A stretch of DNA of 64,000 bases from Schmidtea polychroa (Eukaryota): NCBI GenBank assembly GCA_044892525.1, contig CM097885.1:74772001-74836000 (forward strand). Direction: 5' to 3'. The translations under genes and the position numbers were made by a program. Each line of letters begins with the position of its first letter. Positions within the stretch are counted from its first letter, which is position 1. Positions 29,009 to 57,269 of this stretch are shown one piece after another. The notes beneath the pieces are model-generated. The model was not told the origin of the DNA. It worked only from the letters and a program-made list of their open reading frames with translations, and did no database searches.

Positions 29009-32000
29009 TGTAGGAACAGTGTAATATAACGTAATATAATTTTATAAAAATGTTGTAAAATAGTATTTCAAAAAAGTGTTTAGTCTTACAAGCTATCCGG
29101 GCAATGGAAATCAACAAGATTATAATTGAAAATGTTGGAAATTTTGATTGCAAAAATACAGATGTGGAAGAATGGTTCGACAAACTCGAAATTATTTTTG
29201 AAGCCAAGAATGTGAAAAATGTCATGAATGTAATGCCATTTTTACTTGAAGAGCAATCGTATGCAGTTTTCAAATAGTTAAAGAAAAACAACACGACAAT
29301 CAATTTTGGTATGCTGAAGAAGGAATTATTGAAAACCTTCTGTATAAGCGAGCAAGAAGCCTTTACGAAACTTTTACAGAAAAAGTTATTAATGGGTGAT
29401 AACTTGGATGTTCATGTAAATGAATTAAGGTCACTGTTGGAATGTTCAGGTGATCTACTAACTCGATTTTTTGTAAATAGCTTACCAATTGATTTGTCAA
29501 ATCAACTAAAGATGTCAACAATGAATGAGTTAGTCGCTTAAGCAAAGAAAATCACAAGTCATTAATTTTATGACAATGAAACGGTTGCAGTAGTAATACC
29601 AAGATCAGATAGTGGAAGACAAGCCAATCGAAAATGCTATATATGCAATATTGCTAATCATTTGGTAAGATACTGTCCAGAAAGACGCAACATCAGATGT
29701 GCAAAATGCGGTATTATGGGACATATTTCAAGGTTTTACAAGTCGGGAAAAGATCAATGGGCTACACAATGTGGAGTTGGGTGTGGCCCCAAGAATTGTG
29801 AATATGTGAGACTCCTAGAAGTAAATGATGATGTAAAAGCATGTTTAGTTGATTCGGGCAGCACTACCACTATAGTATAAGGAAATCCATGAAAATCTAT
29901 GAATGCGGTAGCGATGCTTGATGGTTCAATCATATATGCTGAGAGAAGTAAAGTTGATATATTGGTTGGAGATAAGTTATTTAATATTAATTGTTTAATA
30001 TACCCGAAATTAGTATCCAATTATGATGTAATTTTAGGAGTGAATGCTGTTAATAGGTTTGGTGGAGTTCGATTGAATAAAGAAGCCATATTCGGTTGCG
30101 AAGAAGCATATTGTCATGTAGCGTGCTCTAGTAGTAGTATGTCAGAAATATTGAAGGAAAATTTCTCTGCGAGATTTGAAAACGAGAAATGGATTGTCAA
30201 ATGGGATTGAAAGCCAGAGCTACCGAAATTTCTACCTAATAGAAATTCAAACTTTTATGATAATTGTAGTAAAGATCAGGAGACGATGCGTATCTTGAAT
30301 TCTTGGATATCTAACAGCTATATAGTTAATTACGACGAGAAAAAATGGGCAAACCGATCGGATCAGTACCAATTTGTGGTATAATTCAGTTAAATAAAGC
30401 GAAAGTGCGTCCAGTATTTGACTTTAGGAGTATCAATAAATATATTGATGTATATAGTGGGAATGCAGATATCTGTTCTGAAAAATTACGATCATGGAAA
30501 TTATTTTGGAAGCCAAGAATGTGAAAAATGTCATGAATGTAATGCCATTTTTACTTGAAGAGCAATCGTATGCAGTTTTCAAATAGTTAAAGAAAAACAA
30601 CACGACAATCGATTTTGGTATGCTGAAGAAGGAATTATTGAAAACCTTCTGTATAAGCGAGCAAGAAGCCTTTACGAAACTTTTACAGAAAAAGTTATTA
30701 ATGGGTGATAACTTGGATGTTCATGTAAATGAATTAAGGTCACTGTTGGAACGTTCAGGTGATCTACTAACTCGATTTTTTGTAAATAGCTTACCAATTG
30801 ATTTGTCAAATCAACTAAAGATGTCAACAATGAATGAGTTAGTCGCTTAAGCAAAGAAAATCACAAGTCATTAATTTTATGACAATGAAACGGTTGCAGT
30901 AGTAATACCAAGATCAGATAGTGGAAGACAAGCCAATCGAAAATGCTATATATGCAATATTGCTAATCATTTGGTAAGATACTGTCCAGAAAGACGCAAC
31001 ATCAGATGTGCAAAATGCGGTATTATGGGACATATTTCAAGGTTTTACAAGTCGGGAAAAGATCAATGGGCTACACAATGTGGAGTTGGGTGTGGCCCCA
31101 AGAATTGTGAATATGTGAGACTCCTAGAAGTAAATGATGATGTAAAAGCATGTTTAGTTGATTCGGGCAGCACTACCACTATAGTATAAGGAAATCCATG
31201 AAAATCTATGAATGCGGTAGCGATGCTTGATGGTTCAATCATATATGCTGAGAGAAGTAAAGTTGATATATTGGTTGGAGATAAGTTATTTAATATTAAT
31301 TGTTTAATATACCCGAAATTAGTATCCAATTATGATGTAATTTTAGGAGTGAATGCTGTTAATAGGTTTGGTGGAGTTCGATTGAATAAAGAAGCCATAT
31401 TCGGTTGCGAAGAAGCATATTGTCATGTAGCGTGCTCTAGTAGTAGTATGTCAGAAATATTGAAGGAAAATTTCTCTGCGAGATTTGAAAACGAGAAATG
31501 GATTGTCAAATGGGATTGAAAGCCAGAGCTACCGAAATTTCTACCTAATAGAAATTCAAACTTTTATGATAATTGTAGTAAAGATCAGGAGACGATGCGT
31601 ATCTTGAATTCTTGGATATCTAACAGCTATATAGTTAATTACGACGAGAAAAAATGGGCAAACCGATCGGATCAGTACCAATTTGTGGTATAATTCAGTT
31701 AAATAAAGCGAAAGTGCGTCCAGTATTTGACTTTAGGAGTATCAATAAATATATTGATGTATATAGTGGGAATGCAGATATCTGTTCTGAAAAATTACGA
31801 TCATGGAAATTATTTTGGAAGCCAAGAATGTGAAAAATGTCATGAATGTAATGCCATTTTTACTTGAAGGGCAATCGTATGCAGGGCTTCAAACAGTTAA
31901 AGAAAAGCAACACGATAATGGATTTCGGAATGCTGAAGAAGGAATTATTGAAAACCTTCGGTATAAGTGAGCAAGAAGCCTTTACGAAACTGTTACAGAA

Positions 32001-32230
32001 AGAGTTATTAATCGGTGATAACTTGGATGTTCATGTAAATGAATTAAGGTCACTGTTGGAATGTTCAGGTGATCTACTAACCCGATTTTTTGTAAATAGC
32101 TTACCAAGTCATTTGTCAAATCAACTAAAGATGTCAACAGCGTCAACAGTGAATGTGTTAGTCGCTCAAGCAAAGAAAATCACAAGTCATCAATTTTATG
32201 ACAATGAAACGGTTGCAGTAGTAGTGGAAG
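29009..32230 (+). mobile_element. Gypsy-like gag-protease-RT start, tandemly repeated (1309-bp unit x2 plus a diverged partial third copy)
   Basis: Gag starts at ATG 29104 (DVEEWFDKLE). CCHC knuckles (CYIC...HLVRYC, CAKCGIMGH), protease LVDSG, RT start KVRPVFDFR. Units begin at 29188, 30497 and 31806. A possible short LTR remnant TGTAGG...CTTACA lies at 29009-29089. Confidence 0.9.
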
Positions 32231-32344
32231 ACAAGTTAGTCGAAAATGCTATATATACAATAGTGATACAGTTTGGAGATGATTATTATTAGTTAATTTG
32301 TTTAGATATTGCATATTTTATGTCATATTATTGATTATCCAGAT

Positions 32345-32388
32345 TGCGGCCTGACGAAGATTGTTGTACAATTGAAATATATCGCGTT
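32345..32388 (+). ncRNA. Minimal type I hammerhead ribozyme (Penelope-type), slightly degenerate
   Basis: CTGACGA(A) - stem II GATTGT/ACAATT with a 3-nt loop - GAAA - palindromic TATA stem III - TC cleavage triplet. Stem I is weak. Confidence 0.7.
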
Positions 32389-32429
32389 TATGTTGAATTT
32401 ATTGAGTTGGCGTTTCTGTATTATTAAAT

Positions 32430-32584: not shown

Positions 32585-32749
32585 ATTTCATTTCAACAAA
32601 TCAAATGACTGTAATAATATGCAATCATTATGCATTCATTTCACAATATTCAATCAAATTAAATCATTTAATATATATAATCAAATTCTATGTTTCATTC
32701 ATAATAAATAAACTTTTAAAATAAATTATATAATCTTGATTTTCAACAA

Positions 32750-33047
32750 ATGTTTTATGGTAGTAATGATAAAACTGTTGAATGTCTGAACAGTCTAGTA
32801 CTGGAAGCTGAGAATCATTGTAACATTGATTTTTCTCCAGTTTTAGCTCCAAGAACTGACAACGAAAAAGAAAAAGCATTCAAGATTGTGTCCAATTCTT
32901 TATTTGAAGACGGTATTCATTGTGGTACAGTAATCGTACATTTTATGTATATTCGAAAATTTTTACATCGTGCCGGAATTAACATAAATATTTAAATTAG
33001 TCAGCAGAAGAAAAATTTATCCTTAGATAAAACAAAACGGAGAGTGG
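32750..33047 (+). pseudogene. Intronless Bcl-2-family pseudogene (BH3-like, BH1, BH2)
   Basis: ECLNSLVLEAE...TDNEKEKAFKIVSNSLFEDGIHCGTVIVHFMY aligns by eye to Bax ECLKRIGDELD...TDSPREVFFRVAADMFSDGNFNWGRVVALFYF. In the +1 frame, IFKLVSRRKIYP*IKQNGEW matches BH2 (WIxxxGGW) with TGG>TAG. Confidence 0.75.
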
Positions 33048-36000
33048 TAACATTTAACGAAATTACACAAAAGTTATTAAATATATAAGAATATTAAGAT
33101 TAGTTAAACATTTGTTACCAACTAACGAAATTGTTTAGTTACAAATTAAAATAAAATAAACATATCAAAAAATATTCTATTTTATCACTATGTATATTTA
33201 TTTAGTTACCTTCTAGTGATAATTGTCTAGTAATTTATCATTAATTCAAATTTAATTTTAAAAATCAATTAAAATTTTATAATCTACGAAGATTTTATTT
33301 TCTTTTCTATGTATACTAACTTATTTTCAGAAGAGTAAGAAAGCCATAATTAAAAGAAATTTTATTTTTGAGGAAGTGGAAATTATTTCGATTGCAATAA
33401 TAAAGGACACGCAGAGTTAGAAACTAACTAACTTTGTTAAATAATAACTCAAAAATAATATAGTTGATATCGTCTGGATCATCCCCGCCAGCATTACTAG
33501 GCTTATTCCTAACCTGATTACTATTATCATTAATGCTATTATTATCTCAATTTCTAGAATATTATGTTAACAACAAAAGAAATTAACTATAGCCGAATGC
33601 ACTTAAAGGGAAAATTATTGCAATAAATAATAAAATATTTTAGAATTAAAGATTTCTCTATATTAAAACGGTCTGGAGAAAATTAGTTTGACGAGCTTTC
33701 GAGTTATAATGAGTGTTATTAAATTTCAAATCTGTCATGAATTTGTTTATTATTATCATTATAGTTAATCATAATGAAATAATATCAACACAATATTTAT
33801 GCTTTCAGCCATCTTACCATCATCAGTACACTTTTTGTCATCAATTTTCCGGTGTCATCGTAGTGGCGATAAAAATTTGTATTTGGTTATAAAATGGGAA
33901 ATTTGGAACATCCTAACTCTTAAGTATCGTCACTAGTGTTATTTGACTATTATACTGAAATTGTAACATCACCTTTATAAAACCATAAAAATTGCCTGAA
34001 GTGCAACATACATTATTATATATTGAAACCAAATGACTGTTTAATGCAGGGGTAGCCAACTTGTTTTAACTTTCGATCGACTTTGGCATTATAAAATAAA
34101 TACTGATCTACCAAGTAAAAAAAGAACGAGTAAATAAATAGAGTTATAAAATAAAACAATTGATTTACAGAAAGAACTTAAAATGTTTTTATTAAATACT
34201 TTTGTTTGACAAATTAAGAAATTTTAATTAAAAACAGTATTAAATTAATATACAAAGTAAAAACATTAATAATAAAGTGTTCAATAATAATAAAGTGAAC
34301 ATAAATTGAAAAACTATTATTTTGATGTTTTACTTGTGTAATCATACCCTCTACCAATTTTTCAAATTCAGAAATGTAATTTGACAATGACAGTCTTAAT
34401 GAATCTGCTGTGTGCAAGTCTGTAAGTAAGGTGACCAACTATTTTTTTTTCAAAAAGAGTACACTTTGCAAGTATTTCATAGGTGAAAAAAAGAAGAAAA
34501 AACGATAAAAACTTTATTATCTTTTAAAAACATATTTTTCTTCGGAATGGATTTTTTTTGCTAAATGAGGATGTTCGTCTAATAATGTAGCTACATCCGA
34601 ACAACTTTCATTTTGCATATTAAATTTGACCGTTAAGACGGCAGATAATGTTTTTACAGAAAGTTGCGACTTCTCATTCCCTAGTGAAATTACCCTTTCA
34701 ACAGCAGCATTAGTACCTTGGCAACATAAGGAAATTTCTATTAAAACTTTTAAATTTTCATGTGGGATATGTTCTACTCTAAAATGCCGAAAGATTTCTA
34801 CCCATTTTTTGTCAAGTTCTATTTTCCCATCGTTTCATTTCTTCAATTTTTCTTCATTTAAATATAAATTTACTCTTCGAATTTCTCCAAAGAGAAAATT
34901 GTCATTAATAACAATATCTTTTACTTCCTTCATTACAAATTCGACTGCTGAAGAAACTTCTTTCCATTCAATTTTACTATTTAGAAGGGTCCATTTGAAA
35001 CAATTTAATGCTCTAAAGTTCGCTATCCATTCTTCGATATATTCATAGCAAATTTTATAAAAATTTTTAACTTCATTAAAAAATTCATTTTTTATTCCGG
35101 GATGGAAATCTTCCAAAACGGTCAGTTTATTCTTTAGAATTAGTAGTAAAAATCCATCATTAAATCTTGATTTACATTGCAGTATGAAATCGTTTAATAT
35201 AATACAAACTTCTGCTGCTGAAATTTTATTTCCTTCAATTTGTAAAGTAATTTTATGAAACAACGACGCCTGACTGTGAATAAAATAAAGCATAGGTTCT
35301 GACATATCGTTTTGAAAGAATTTCTTTAAAACGGTAGGACATTTGTCAAGGCTTAAAAAATATGAACGTAGTGGATCATATAACTGCAAAACGCGTTCTA
35401 ATGCTGGAGTTAAAGCAAGCCATCTGACTTTGGAATAACCAAGCAGTTTTTTGTATTGAACACCAGCTTCTTTACAAAATTCTTTCAAACTTGCTATCCG
35501 TACTGTAAACCGATTGAAATATAAATATATATTTGTAATAATTACTTACACATCTATTGACATTGAACTTGATGCTGTATTGATGGCATTTGATATAATG
35601 TGAGTATTACAACCATTTCCCAAAATATTTCGTTTCAGAAGATCTTGTAATTTTGTGTACACATTATTGACACCTTTACGGGTGCGTCCTCCAAAATTAG
35701 TATTTGTGTTATCAGCCGAGAGCGCTAAAATTTTCTTTTTCAAATTGTTGACTGTTATAACTCGAAATAAGTGATTAGACAAAATGTCTGATGTTTCCCC
35801 TTCCATTGATTCCAAATTTAAAATCTTAATTTGAATACCGTTTTTAATATCGAAATACCTTACTAAAATTGGATAAAGTTTTATTTCAGTGTGATTTGAT
35901 GCGTCGAATAGAATAGATATATATGATACAGAATCAAGATTTTCTGATAGCATTTTCTTGCAGTATTCATTAAATACGCTGGTTACAATAGACTCACATT

Positions 36001-41384: not shown

Positions 41385-42278
41385 TCACATTTGCTTCACT
41401 TTAGTTCCCACTATTGGAAATGTTGCTATCTTCTCTTTCATTCTAAGAGAGAATAAACCTATTCAATTGAATATAATAAAATTACATAGCGACAATATTA
41501 AGGACTCGATCACGTGCCTTGATAGCAACCTCGTCGATTTGTGTCTATTTAAAAGAATCAATAATGTAACAAACAATATTATCAAAATCTTACTCTGTAC
41601 ATAGAATATATTTTAGGACATGTCATTAACAAGAGTACAAAAACAGTTACCAAATCAATAAGATTAAAACACATGCCAATATATACCATTGCTACATTGA
41701 CTAAGAAAAACTGAGGAAAAAATAAATTCAACTTAATTTAATTAAGTATGGGTACCTTAACGCCATCTAAGTAGCTCTCTAATAAAAATATCGAATTTAA
41801 ATAAGCTATTGCTTTCTTGAAATGGCTATTATCGTTAGTTGTTTGATAATGTACATAATCAGATATCTTAGTTAAATAAACATTCATATCTTTTTCTAAA
41901 TATTCTTGGAATGGATTTGCTGCTTCATTGTTAATGAAGTTGGAATAAAATCGCAAAAGCATTGATGATATTATAAACAATAATCCAATGTATGCAATAA
42001 CAGAAATAAATGACAATGTTTTAACCATAATCACAAGCACTATCCATGAGACTAATAATGAACTAGTTAATATTGGACAATGCCAAGATATTATGTTCTT
42101 AACTATTTTTTAAAAATTTTTACAATAAAAAAATGAAAGATAAATAATTACTAGATCTGGGTAAGGATTCCAAACATGAACAGTTGAATTCATTTTCTAC
42201 ATTATAAGGTAATAAAATTTATTAAATCTAAATAAAACCTCCACCTATCATTTTTTCGTTAGCATCACAGGTCTCCAT
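41385..42278 (-). CDS. RTN: Reticulon (short RTN/Rtnl1-type), 6 exons, ~219 aa
   Basis: Exons 42278-42245, 42196-42152, 42102-41756, 41710-41594, 41544-41486 and 41442-41385 join in phase. NIISW...SFISVIAYIGL...NPFQEYLEKD...IFLLESYLDGVK|FFLVNVAMVYIGMCFN...CPKIYSMYR|TQIDE matches the reticulon homology domain, with intron positions like vertebrate RTNs. The first two exons are less certain. Confidence 0.9.
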
Positions 42279-50952: not shown

Positions 50953-53900
50953 TGTTGGGGTTCAACAAAAGAGGTACAAAATTGAGGTGAAAATCAATAA
51001 AACCATCAAATTCACAATAATAATTTAAAGTACAAAAATATTAATTAAAAATTAAAAAAAAATTAAAAATGATTATTTTCCGGTGGAAACTGGTATGGGC
51101 GGATACCGAACAATCAGACGAGTTCAAATATAATGAAATAAAGTCAATGAAGGGTCACCAGAGGAAAATAATTACAAAAAATTAAAATTAATTTAAAATT
51201 AATTAACTAATAGAAAACCCGAGCTAATGGGAAACACGAGATAATGCAAAACCCGAGCAGTGTGAAAGGACTCTAGTGGTCAATCAAATTTGGTGGAGGC
51301 AAGTAAAGCAGCCAACGAAAAATTAAATTGGGGTAAGCCATCAAAAAAGACGAGCAAATTACCCAAACTAATTTGATCGATAAGAGATAGCCCGGAAAAA
51401 AGGATCCAAAGCAATTTGATTAGGGGATGATAAAATTATGAGATGGGTATAAAAGCGACCGGCAAGTAAACAGAATTGCCAGTAGGTCGAAGAAAGAAAA
51501 GTTGTTGAATAGCAAAAGAAAGCAGAGGCGAATTTACCTTAGTGTTTTTTTCTGCGTCATAAGATCCATCAATTTTTGATTGTTCTAATTTATAAGAGAT
51601 GCTCTTGTTATGAAACGTAACATTCAATTAATAAAAAATTAATATTTCTTTAGAATTTCAGAACTTAACAAAATCAGATTATTCAATTCAATGGAAAATG
51701 GGGAAGAATTTTTATAATTTCAGGAGATTAGATTATTAGGAATTCGCAAAGAATCAATCCTTAATATAATATATGTGAGGAAGTTGAAAGATTCTTAAAG
51801 ATTAATTAGAAATTTTGTTAAATTTAAAATATATTTTTATTGAAAAATATTTTAAGAAAAACTGAAATTTGTTTACATAACAAAAATAAGAAGAGACAAG
51901 TTTTTGAGTATATAATTTATTAAATAAAATTTATGGAATTATTTGGTGATTCGAAAACGGATATTAATGTTCTAATGGATGCGAATCCTAATATGGTGGC
52001 AGCGGTAAACACCGACGCGATTACCGAAAGATTATTGCCAAAGGTGTTCTGTCAAGGTGATGACTTGGAAAAATTCATTAGAAGATGCGAGATTGAATTA
52101 TAAAAGAAGAGGCGAAGAGATTGAACCATATTTAAAAAAAGTGGAGGACCTTATTGACAGGTTGTTTGAGAATAAAGAATTCACCAAAGAGGAAATAACA
52201 GCAAAGATGTTGATAGTATGCACTGAAAATAAAGAAGTTGAGAAAGAAGTAATATTGCGGAAGATAAAAAGCACAGAGGAGATAAAGGAAACATTAATTC
52301 TTATGGATAAAGTGGACAGGCAGAGAGATCAGATAAACGCTATGAAAAGTTATGCAAGAGTGGTCTATCAGGATCCACAGAGAAGAGGACAGTACAAGCA
52401 GAAAGATGAAAGAGAAGAAGTCAGGCGAGGAGAAGAACCAGAGTGCTGGCTATGCCATAAAATAGCCCACACGAAAATAGAATGTCCAGTAAGAAGTAAG
52501 ATAGAGTGCTGGACATGTCATAGAAGCGGACATATAAGTAGGAAATGTCCAGATAAAAAAGTGCCAAGATGTTTTGGTTGTGGGAAAGAAGGTCATATTA
52601 GAAAGTTATGTCAAGAAATACGGTGTGAAGCTGCAACAAAAATGGTCATAGATCTGAAGAATGTTATACAAAGTCGAGTTACAAGAAAACGATAGAGAAA
52701 TAAAGACCGACAGGAAACAGATACAGCCAGATTAATGGAATCAAAGAAGAAGAGGAAACGGAATCGTGCGTAGAGACAAAAGAAGATAATGTTAGTAGGA
52801 CGTACCCAAACAACAGAGCTCTACCAGTAGATGAGTTGTTTGGAGCCATATACTAACAGAAATGTTGATGGCATATCCTCAAGGGCTAGAAAAGTAGGAG
52901 AATGTAGGAAGGTTAAGTGAAAAAGTATACAGGTTCCTAAGGAGAGAAATGTTTGAAGAGGAAGTGGAAAGAATTGGAACAATTGAAACGGGGCAGGAGG
53001 TAGAAATTGTGTATAACAAGCTACAGGGAAGACCTAGTGTAACAGTAATGATGAATGGGGAAGTTTTTGACTGTATATTAGACACCGGAGCACGAATAAA
53101 CGTAATGAGTGTGAACTGTTTTAACAACTTACGAGGACAACAATTGATGAGAAGCGACGATAAGTTACGATGTGCAAACAAAAGTACGATAGAGACAATT
53201 GGAAGAACAAAGGTTAAAGTAACTATCGGAGATATTTCCAAGGAAGTTGGATTCATTGTGGCGGAGAAAGTGACACCAGAGGTGATTGGAGGAGAAGAAT
53301 TACAAGGAGCATTTGGATATAGGAAGGCAGAAAAGAAAGATATCGAATCTAGTGAAAAAGACAAGAACTATATTTGTAACATTGAAGCTAGATTCGGCAG
53401 ACAAATAAAGAATGGAAAACGATTGACGCGAGCGTTGGAACATCTAAAGATTGATGAGAATAGTAAGTTAAAGGAAATAATAACGAACAGTGGAAACGTG
53501 CTTATGGCGGATAAATGGGATGTGGGTCGCACGCATTTAGTAAAACATAAGATAATTACAAGAGGTGAACCGATAAACATAAAACCATTGAATTTGGAAG
53601 CAAAATTGAAGAAGCAATACAAAATTTGTACGAAAACGGGATAATACGAAAATGCAACTTCCCATGGAACACGCCATTAATCTGCGTATGGAAAAAAGAG
53701 AAAAAAGATATTATGTTATGCTTGGATTTCAGACAGCTGACTGCAGTAACAGAGAAGCAGGCATTCCCAATGCCAAACATAGACGAGATGTTAGATTTGT
53801 TAGGAGGGTCCGTTTAATTTAGCTCAATCGATCTTGGTAATGCATATTACCAAGTGGAGTTAGACGAAGGAGCGCAAGAGAAAACAACAAAGAAAGGGCA

Positions 53901-55168: not shown

Positions 55169-55571
55169 GAATAAAGAATGAGAGTGAAGTAAATCCTATT
55201 ATTGATAATCAGAAACCACTTAGTGAGAATGGGATCGGGAGAAAATTTGGTAATGGAGCTCATCTGCGCATTTATTCCTAGCCAAATTATACATTTTCAA
55301 CATTCATTCGGTGAGTATGAATAACTATGGGAAGAAATTCATCTGATGGTTCAAGGTCAAGGTGGAATGAAGGTCATATAACCGTAATAAATTATCAACT
55401 CGGAACATCACCAAATATAATAAATAATAAATAAGTATTATAAATAAATTTTGAGTATTGCAAATTATAATAATTATGTTAATATTTTATTTTGTAATAA
55501 CTTTATTTCATATTTTTTTGAAATATTTTATTAATTTTTATTGATTGTTTTATCTTAAATGAATCACATTT

Positions 55572-57269
55572 ATGTCCACATATACCGGAACGGATCCAAG
55601 GAAATTATCTCTTGCGCCTCCTTCTCAGCCATCCTATTCGGCCTTTCAGAGTAATGAAGATAAGAAGAATGGTAAGTGGTTTACCATATGGAAAGAGTAC
55701 GCATCGTACACGACATTGCATGGACCAAATCATATCACGTCCACATCGGAACGTTGGCGGACATATTACATTGTTATATTTATTATTATGATTTGTCTTT
55801 TCACCTGTCACAGCGGATTTCTGATTTACCAGTATAAGCAATTTCCTATAAACACCGACGTAAAATTCCAGAACATTTTGTATTCCTATCCCGATGTGAC
55901 AATATGCCCCAATTCTGCCACTTCTGAGTACTTGCTTAATAAATCCAAAGAAGCGCAAAGCAGTCACAAGTCTAGCAAAGCATTCTGGGAAGGCAAAAAG
56001 ATTTATCGTGAGTCTCTGGAAAAATTGATCAAGAGAAATTATTTGAAATATTTTTACCGGTATTCCCACATCATTGGCCGGTTACCCCACCAACATATAA
56101 TATGGTGCCAAATACGTGATCAGAGCTGTCTGGATCAAATATTTATCACAGAACATCCAACGTATTATCGCTGTTTTACATTACGTGTTAATACCCAATC
56201 AGTTCTGGCCGGGCCAACGCACGGTATTACGATTTTGTTGCATAGAGGAGACCCTTCAAAACCATTATTACAAGTTAATGAACACCTTTCTTATGAAGAA
56301 CAAACTAGCATAAAAAAAGATAACATTAAAAACTTCACCGGATTTATAATAGGTTTTCATGAAAGAGGTTCCTTCCCAAATTTTCAATTGTTGGCACTTC
56401 CTGCAGTGACAGATGTGAGATTTGGTGACCAGATACGAATATCACTAGATTTGACAAGTTTAAAGGCTGCTAATTTAAAAATCAGACCATGTGAATTTAC
56501 CACAAATGTCCTACCTATCCAGTTGATTAAATCTGATCCCATTTCAACTAGTATTGACGATTCTAATTCGCAAATGTTGAAATTTGCTTACATCCGTCAA
56601 TCTTGCATTGCAATAAAACGGCAAGAGTTGATCTATAAGACTTGTGGATGTTTCAGTGAAGAATACAACATCCCCTACCACATGAAGCATTATGGTAATG
56701 TTTGGTGCTATGACATAATTGGGAAAACGGATAAAATCATCAATATAGACTCGACCATTACTTGCGTTGAGAAAATAAATCAGATGACAGAAAATGAAGT
56801 TTTATTCAATTACTTTAAAATGAAACCGGATCAAAACCTTTTAAACACCTTTAGTGTATGTCCATTGAGGTGTGACAGGTTTATTCACTTGATACAGTCG
56901 ATATTCAAGGATTCTATATCGCATTCGATTGCGTTGGTGAATTTTCAAAATTACTTTGAACATTTAGCTTTGAAGGGGTTGACCAATCCATTTTTAAAGG
57001 TGACGAGTGTTGTGGAGAGTGGTGATCTCATTGCTCTAGATATCAACACGATATCTGAATATGTCAACGAAGTGGTTGAGACCCAAGCATTTGATAAACT
57101 TAATCTAATCAGTCAAATTGGAGGAATATCGGGACTCTATATAGGAATCACAATCTTTACAATATTTGAAATATTGGATTTGATTTTACAATGGCTGTAT
57201 CATTTATTTCCAGGGGTCCAGACATGGTTATCATGGAATCGGTTGTCGGCCCTTTTTAAAAGAAATTGA
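55572..57269 (+). CDS. DEG/ENaC (amiloride-sensitive sodium channel family) subunit, 565 aa, apparently single exon
   Basis: Pre-TM1 TTLHG motif, TM1, YPDVTICP, RCFT, Cys-rich thumb (CGCFS, CPLRC) and TM2 LISQIGGISGLYIGITIFTIFE. AATAAA at ~57356. Confidence 0.95.
   Translation: MSTYTGTDPRKLSLAPPSQPSYSAFQSNEDKKNGKWFTIWKEYASYTTLHGPNHITSTSERWRTYYIVIFIIMICLFTCHSGFLIYQYKQFPINTDVKFQNILYSYPDVTICPNSATSEYLLNKSKEAQSSHKSSKAFWEGKKIYRESLEKLIKRNYLKYFYRYSHIIGRLPHQHIIWCQIRDQSCLDQIFITEHPTYYRCFTLRVNTQSVLAGPTHGITILLHRGDPSKPLLQVNEHLSYEEQTSIKKDNIKNFTGFIIGFHERGSFPNFQLLALPAVTDVRFGDQIRISLDLTSLKAANLKIRPCEFTTNVLPIQLIKSDPISTSIDDSNSQMLKFAYIRQSCIAIKRQELIYKTCGCFSEEYNIPYHMKHYGNVWCYDIIGKTDKIINIDSTITCVEKINQMTENEVLFNYFKMKPDQNLLNTFSVCPLRCDRFIHLIQSIFKDSISHSIALVNFQNYFEHLALKGLTNPFLKVTSVVESGDLIALDINTISEYVNEVVETQAFDKLNLISQIGGISGLYIGITIFTIFEILDLILQWLYHLFPGVQTWLSWNRLSALFKRN

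Follow-up and report, generated by a model that had tools for sequence, protein, structure and literature searches.

Bcl-2-family genes have been described before as passengers of large animal mobile elements. Homologues of Bcl2 and IAP were reported in adintoviruses, the animal Polintons/Mavericks (Starrett et al. 2021, PMC8502044), and a Bcl-2 cargo of such elements is therefore already published; the text of Fig. S2 of that paper labels Bcl2 three times, once beside a Steinernema label, and the terms Schmidtea, planarian and flatworm were not found in its main text and part of its supplement. For the giant planarian gypsy element Burro (GYPSM1), a BCL2-like motif was published inside a polyprotein of ~4,900 amino acids (aa), before env (PMC6431247, Arkhipova and Yushenova). 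The locus described here lies in a stretch of 64,000 nucleotides (nt) from Schmidtea polychroa (GCA_044892525.1, CM097885.1, positions 74,772,001 to 74,836,000), hereafter the window. It comprises an intronless Bcl-2-family pseudogene at 32718..33065 (+), which together with a spacer and downstream non-coding DNA forms the relic of an old Polinton/Maverick subfamily at 32585..33384 (+). With a rough probability of 0.88, the locus is read as a dead fragment of an old Polinton/Maverick in which the Bcl-2 gene was an accessory gene, likely captured from the host and likely used against host-cell apoptosis.

A first-pass annotation of the window had described an 81-aa open reading frame (ORF) with Bax-like motif spacing, followed one frameshift later by a broken BH2 segment, IYP*IKQNGEW. 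Both are present: the ORF (32750..32995, +) runs from an ATG at 32750 to a stop at 32993–32995 and carries the quoted motifs, and the BH2 segment stands in a different frame with its stop at 33024. Only the first ~70 codons of the ORF are in the Bcl-2 frame, the remainder being out of frame. By itself the ORF reaches E 0.066 and 14.2 bits against Pfam Bcl-2 (cut-off 31.4 bits) and a best E of 0.52 against PDB, where 12 of the 12 matches at E≤10 are Bcl-2-family chains; with its own profile score below the cut-off, its predicted Bcl-2 membership rests on its relatives. Frameshift-aware alignment of the window copy, with an X placed at each break, gave scores of 218, 274 and 147 against three natural relatives and spanned 32727–33065, compared with 29–36 for 12 shuffles of the same DNA aligned to the first relative, so the Bcl-2 homology of this copy is not due to chance. 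Instead of one frameshift, the alignment revealed three (near 32748, at 32954–32966 and at 33010–33016) and four stops (at 32980, 32998, 33024 and 33048).

The pseudogene extends from helix 1 to just beyond BH2, and its aligned start has no initiator codon. Its first helix is the YIILIFN stretch at 32727–32747, in a third frame; SFIINKLL, earlier put forward tentatively as a BH4-like segment, is located in another frame, 5' of the translation start of the relatives. Some 110–160 nt that are tail-coding in three relatives were deleted at ~33065–33071. The tail anchor noted as missing is thus indeed absent here, but this is not a trait of the family, as the relatives possess a hydrophobic tail (best 17-residue Kyte-Doolittle mean 2.2–2.4 in the closest, old relatives, 1.25 in the young family and 1.5 in the host gene). 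Similarly, the NWGR signature was correctly read as HCGT, but this reflects decay of the window copy: its relatives and the host gene retain the BH1 tryptophan, and none of them has NWGR. The absence of an intron in the window copy was borne out. No functional protein is made by this copy, which decayed once it had inserted and has lost the remainder of its element.

Intact relatives, for which a genome search had been proposed, do exist and reside in Polinton elements. In the genome searched (G000; 781 Mb, 1,012 contigs, of which four are very large; G+C of the window ~30%), 44 matches to the window ORF were found among 128 candidates scored, and 29 of these matches were examined. An open, intronless, stand-alone 144-aa Bcl-2 gene is found in a young group. 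The window copy is a member of an older one, being 47% identical to the young protein and 68–76% identical to its five best matches; by aligned positions, identity is 56/112 with an open 144-aa relative, 66/92 with an old-subfamily relative and 43/95 with the host Bcl-2 paralogue. Among 16 diverged copies read, 15 contain stops or frameshifts, and the remaining one lacks its 5' part through an insertion.

The open 144-aa relative matches Pfam Bcl-2 (PF00452) above the cut-off (E 1.1e-07, 32.7 bits) and Bcl-xL by sequence at E 1.7e-04. Its structural model (pLDDT 77.9) retrieved Bcl-xL/Bcl-2 as the top Foldseek matches with probability 1.00 and TM ~0.6, and of the 25 PDB structure matches at E≤0.001 all those listed were Bcl-xL. 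The product of the open relatives is accordingly predicted by modelling to have the Bcl-2 helical bundle fold. A viral fold library gave no match at E≤0.001; viral Bcl-2 proteins headed its list, with E values of 0.02 or more. A homologue search with the open 144-aa protein found none at E≤0.001 among 27 candidates, and one with a 9-row alignment found 3 of 1,135 candidates, with 2 in a 1.84-billion library. Compared with cellular Bcl-2 proteins (PF00452, Bcl-xL, the host paralogue), the element gene shares the helical fold, the BH1 and BH2 positions and, in the relatives, the hydrophobic tail, but it is shorter (144 aa), lacks the BH2 intron and the long loop, and has a BH1 that is not NWGR.

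The carrier of the open genes displays features of a Polinton/Maverick. Vertebrate Mavericks are 12.7–24.6 kb long with terminal inverted repeats (TIRs) of 46–1,447 bp, AGT-type ends and 6-bp duplications; most copies are degraded, and an accessory region is present (Barreat and Katzourakis 2021, PMC8097293). Three young-family copies from separate 10-kb tiles have 14–16.5 kb in common at 96–99% identity, with long TIRs. These elements measure ~16.5 kb. In two of the three copies the ends read AGTAG...CTACT and a 6-bp target duplication is present, the third lacking its left end; size, ends and target duplication match the Mavericks of PMC8097293. The Bcl-2 gene is situated near the left end, flanked on one side by a divergent 142-aa ORF and a mini-TBP gene and on the other by the polymerase gene. 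Relatives encode an integrase (rve, E 6.3e-12) and a packaging ATPase (Pox_A32, E 1.1e-08). A 1,389-aa ORF contains family B exonuclease I and II and polymerase motif B patterns, the motif A and C patterns as written being unmatched, and may fit the divergent 'Beta' class of PMC8502044. A 421-aa ORF has a homologue, P0013, that is 66% identical and matches double-jelly-roll clusters at 0.98 (PF21738, 30% of members); a single-sequence model of this capsid-like protein had a pLDDT of 35.7, and a PDB profile search gave no match. In addition, a TBP-domain protein of ~150 aa (Pfam TBP, E 2e-14) is encoded by the Polintons that bear Bcl-2 (L033:8816-9283 (-), also in L040, L041 and L101).

Like the adintovirus Bcl2 (PMC8502044), the planarian gene is a small Bcl-2 accessory gene in an element encoding an integrase, a putative PolB and FtsK; the differences are that a host donor can be named here, that several families have the gene, some with an intron, and that the window copy is dead. 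The vertebrate Mavericks of PMC8097293 are reported to have intronless genes in intact elements, and the term 'Bcl' is absent from that paper, whereas here sister families have an apparent GT-AG intron of 38–51 nt in their Bcl-2 gene, as well as a TBP-domain gene.

The window copy itself was tied to these elements through its flanks. The relic DNA (query 1-800) has matches of 69–93% at dozens of places, and beyond it a different repeat starts. The spacer at 32585..32717 (no strand assigned), which includes SFIINKLL, separates the Bcl-2 gene from the divergent 142-aa element ORF and matches L040 and L041 at 80%; the wider stretch 32585-32791 matches the DNA adjoining the 142-aa ORF in both. On the other side, 33063..33384 (no strand assigned) corresponds to the Bcl-2-to-polymerase interval of the relatives, with a 76% match to L047/L048, where polymerase remnants lie at least about 280 nt further on. 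The N run adjoining the gene, first taken for a gap hiding the 5' context, is not an assembly gap: the locus in its own genome has a simple dinucleotide repeat there and ~30 more relic bases, by which the homology extends further 5'. By sequence homology, the non-coding DNA on both sides of the gene is identified as Polinton spacer.

These spacer matches are better evidence than co-occurrence counts. Of 20 tiles surrounding diverged relatives, 16 hold a further Polinton gene within 5 kb; of 20 evenly spaced 10-kb control tiles (L117-L136), 7 hold a Polinton-family gene, two of the seven having an integrase alone, which may be of retroelement origin. The 142-aa ORF adjoined Bcl-2 in 6/20 relative tiles, versus 0/20 controls. 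Plain co-occurrence is the weaker argument because the background of Polinton debris is high. Searching the window by tblastn with 136 ORFs from seven element tiles gave no remnant of polymerase, integrase, ATPase, capsid or TBP, and element genes were not found in the 10 kb downstream of the window. A decayed TBP-gene remnant lies 39 kb upstream of the relic (L105:3341-3807, G000:C1:74.765 Mb); it resembles the layout of another Polinton family and was not counted as part of the relic's element.

A phylogeny including host and element Bcl-2 proteins, as the first-pass annotation had advised, was constructed from 33 rows and 153 columns with a midpoint root. Few outside homologues were found, so wide outgroup sampling was impossible and the tree holds this genome plus P0003 and P0124 only. 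The window copy falls within the intronless Polinton clade (100/99). The intron-bearing Polinton families pair together (97/92), and the intronless clade pairs with the host gene and P0124 (83/80, under the star threshold). Burro-type rows stand apart (100/100) on a branch of 3.27. Deep support is weak: the grouping of all Polinton rows with the host gene has 85/35.

The tree and the flanks bear directly on the retroelement origin proposed at first, in which the gene would have been carried by the adjacent gypsy retroelement or by Burro, a giant long terminal repeat (LTR) element. Gypsy-like gag debris does lie 300–3,500 bp upstream of the relic, Burro shares with the present elements the carriage of a BCL2-like domain in planarians, and many Bcl-2 matches in this genome sit inside very long ORFs. 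However, the published Burro domain is an in-frame part of a polyprotein, whereas the present gene is stand-alone (144 aa in the open relatives) and belongs to a DNA element, with Polinton spacers on both sides of the relic copy and a position on a different branch, and a young unrelated repeat intervenes between the relic and the gypsy debris. Burro-type Bcl-2 domains do occur in the genome, but their clade is far from the window copy. A gypsy or Burro carrier is refuted by the tree and the flank homology, barring LTR-bounded copies of the relic's subfamily, and is left with next to no probability; the carrier is instead a Polinton/Maverick.

Estimates of the ratio of nonsynonymous to synonymous change (dN/dS) are rough, having been made by NG86 without base-bias correction. 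Between the old and young subfamilies the ratio is 0.19–0.45 (18 pairs), with the window copy at 0.26 and 0.22, at a dS of 0.8–1.9 that is near saturation. Among the dead old copies it spans 0.32–1.85 (36 pairs), and for the window copy against 8 old relatives it is 0.37–0.76 at dS 0.27–0.39. Such values would fit a gene that was constrained while the element was active and decayed later. A processed pseudogene, derived from the host Bcl-2 paralogue by retrotransposition and with no role for an element, is extremely unlikely. It would account for the absence of the host BH2 intron from the relic and for the clear relationship with the host gene, but the relic is much nearer to the Polinton copies than to that gene, its non-coding flanks match Polinton spacers, and its dN/dS of 0.22–0.26 against the young subfamily is too low for direct decay from a host mRNA. 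Flanks matching host untranslated regions, or a poly(A) tract with a target duplication, were not seen at the relic. In seeing decayed Bcl-2-family cargo carried by a mobile element or virus, rather than a plain processed pseudogene, the first-pass annotation is supported.

The host paralogue is a single-locus match at G000:C1:268.544-268.548 Mb, with two exons and a Pfam PF00452 score of 46.4 bits. In 4 of 4 runs (2 studies) a GT..AG joint follows the BH2 GGW codon directly and skips 2,972 nt, and the second exon, 3 kb downstream, encodes a hydrophobic tail. Sequence comparison suggests that this spliced gene is the nearest cellular relative of the relic's clade and likely the donor. None of the examined Polinton copies has its BH2 intron, which suggests capture as a spliced copy. 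The reverse direction, in which the spliced host gene would be a domesticated Polinton gene, is very unlikely. In the unconstrained tree, P0124 and the host gene do nest among the Polinton Bcl-2 rows, but the host intron stands where other host paralogues also break off, no Polinton genes were found within about 15 kb on either side of the host gene, and a single Polinton clade was not rejected by the approximately unbiased (AU) test (p 0.194). The AU test did not decide between one capture and two.

A Pfam Bcl-2 search of the genome gave 136 matches among the best 150 of 909 candidates scored, a listing that did not include the relic; 42 loci were read, and they include host genes, domains inside very long ORFs (up to 3,058 codons) and further Polinton families. 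The polyprotein-embedded domains appear to be of Burro type, an assignment made by layout and not by comparison with the Burro sequence. Two other Polinton families have an apparent GT-AG intron in their Bcl-2 gene, 51, 45 or 38 nt long (L088:1714-1764, L077:1714-1758 and L056:5202-5239). Its position is common to both families but differs from that in the host, whose intron site lies 13 codons further on. ATPase, integrase and TBP genes are present in two tiles of one family, polymerase genes in three tiles of the other. A contig from a run guessed to be RNA has a non-templated A run directly after the stop of an intron-bearing-type Bcl-2 gene, a weak hint that the intron-bearing Polinton Bcl-2 is transcribed. 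For the intronless family, a look-up of sequencing runs listed no RNA run, an outcome that has no bearing on its expression. Among the side observations on this family of genes, two pairs of Bcl-2 copies, L014/L015 (C1:213.38 Mb) and L077/L078 (C1:203.69 Mb), lie 7–8 kb apart in opposite orientation, which suggests internally inverted, palindromic element derivatives.

Viral Bcl-2 proteins generally hold off apoptosis, and the homologues characterised so far are mostly pro-survival. By analogy, the Bcl-2 protein of active elements would probably, though by no means surely, block mitochondrial apoptosis as well. The proposed course begins when an element takes up a spliced copy of one host Bcl-2 paralogue of planarian type, which would then have been kept under purifying selection while borne by the element, a different short intron presumably being gained later in other Polinton families. 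From active elements a small, tail-anchored pro-survival protein would bind the BH3 helices of host pro-death proteins, and mitochondrial apoptosis would be held off in the cell that hosts the replicating or integrating element.

A Polinton origin combined with another function, that is, a Bax/Bak-like, pro-death or non-apoptotic membrane factor acting for example in particle release or against a competing pathway, is fairly unlikely. The top PDB sequence matches of the relic, weak as they are (E 0.5–1.7), are Bax and Bak, and BH1 is degenerate in all families. On the other side, the open relative is nearer to Bcl-xL in both sequence and fold, viral homologues point to survival as said above, and adintovirus Bcl2 was listed among homologues of anti-apoptotic proteins by Starrett et al. 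(PMC8502044).

Several points weigh against the reading of the locus as an accessory gene of an old Polinton/Maverick with an anti-apoptotic role. Fold and sequence alike fail to tell pro-survival Bcl-2 proteins from pro-death ones, Bax/Bak are the best PDB matches of the relic itself, and every element copy has a degenerate NWGR. Around the window copy there is no surviving core Polinton gene, TIR or target duplication, so its element is assigned only by the homology of gene and spacers. With 7 of the 20 control tiles holding a Polinton-family gene, such debris is very common in the genome, and 4 of the 20 relative tiles have no Polinton gene, one of the four being the host gene. Regarding the element proteins, the 1,389-aa polymerase ORF matched neither Pfam PF03175 nor PDB, the capsid assignment of the 421-aa ORF rests on the homologue P0013, and protease and minor capsid genes were not identified, the 352-aa and 129-aa ORFs next to the capsid-like gene having no Pfam match. 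The sister grouping with the host gene is below threshold, long branches meet among the host rows, and the dS between subfamilies is near saturation in NG86 estimates that lack base-bias correction.

Read as a dead Polinton/Maverick fragment, the relic is a fossil showing that an older, now dead Polinton subfamily already had an intronless Bcl-2 gene, and it links the intronless Polinton Bcl-2 with a host paralogue that is named and expressed. Should the open copies block apoptosis, planarians would offer an animal tractable by RNA interference for probing the function of a Polinton accessory gene. Planarian Polintons are targets of PIWI-interacting RNAs and are reported to be de-silenced, or to open up, during cell differentiation (PMC8532177), and an expansion of Mavericks has been described in Dugesia (bioRxiv 10.64898/2025.12.11.693146). 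The literature searched, which did not extend to subscription papers, Repbase and bioRxiv supplements, yielded no account of a Polinton-borne Bcl-2 in planarians. A broader scenario is tentative and somewhat doubtful: two unrelated giant mobile elements of one planarian genome may have taken Bcl-2 domains independently, with the Polinton taking the host paralogue twice, or once as a spliced copy followed by a new intron; the gene might have been kept under selection over several amplification waves, might still be transcribed and might tune the death of stem-cell progeny, and the relic would date the intronless form to an older, extinct wave.

Between the relic and the gypsy debris lies a young, high-copy short repeat of 166 bp (32264..32429, no strand assigned) unrelated to the Bcl-2 gene; it is 99% identical in 39 of the 39 other matches listed (best 40 of 519 candidates). 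The gypsy-like debris with its zinc-knuckle gag remnants (29009..32263, +) is a neighbour and not the carrier; Pfam zf-CCHC matches it at E 3.7e-06 at both 29566-29877 and 30875-31186. At 29188-32268 the debris forms a tandem triplication with a spacing of 1309/1310 bp, whose units one and two are 99–100% identical. Elsewhere in the window are LTR-element ORFs with gag zinc-knuckle and aspartyl-protease domains (52009-53644, +), a Reticulon-domain exon or ORF (41738-42109, -; E 1.4e-07) and an unbroken 568-aa ORF of the amiloride-sensitive sodium channel family (55563-57269, +; Pfam ASC, E 1.4e-38). Elsewhere in the genome, another Polinton-like element (L023:6730-8028 (+), L024) that adjoins a Bcl-2-bearing copy has an integrase with an N-terminal phospholipase A2-like domain (PF08398, E 3.5e-09). 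Furthermore, a tandem cluster at G000:C4:89.9-90.8 Mb (L059-L065) contains seven near-identical Bcl-2 genes whose NWGR is canonical and which lack the BH2 intron; they come in two forms with open frames of 167 and 199 codons.

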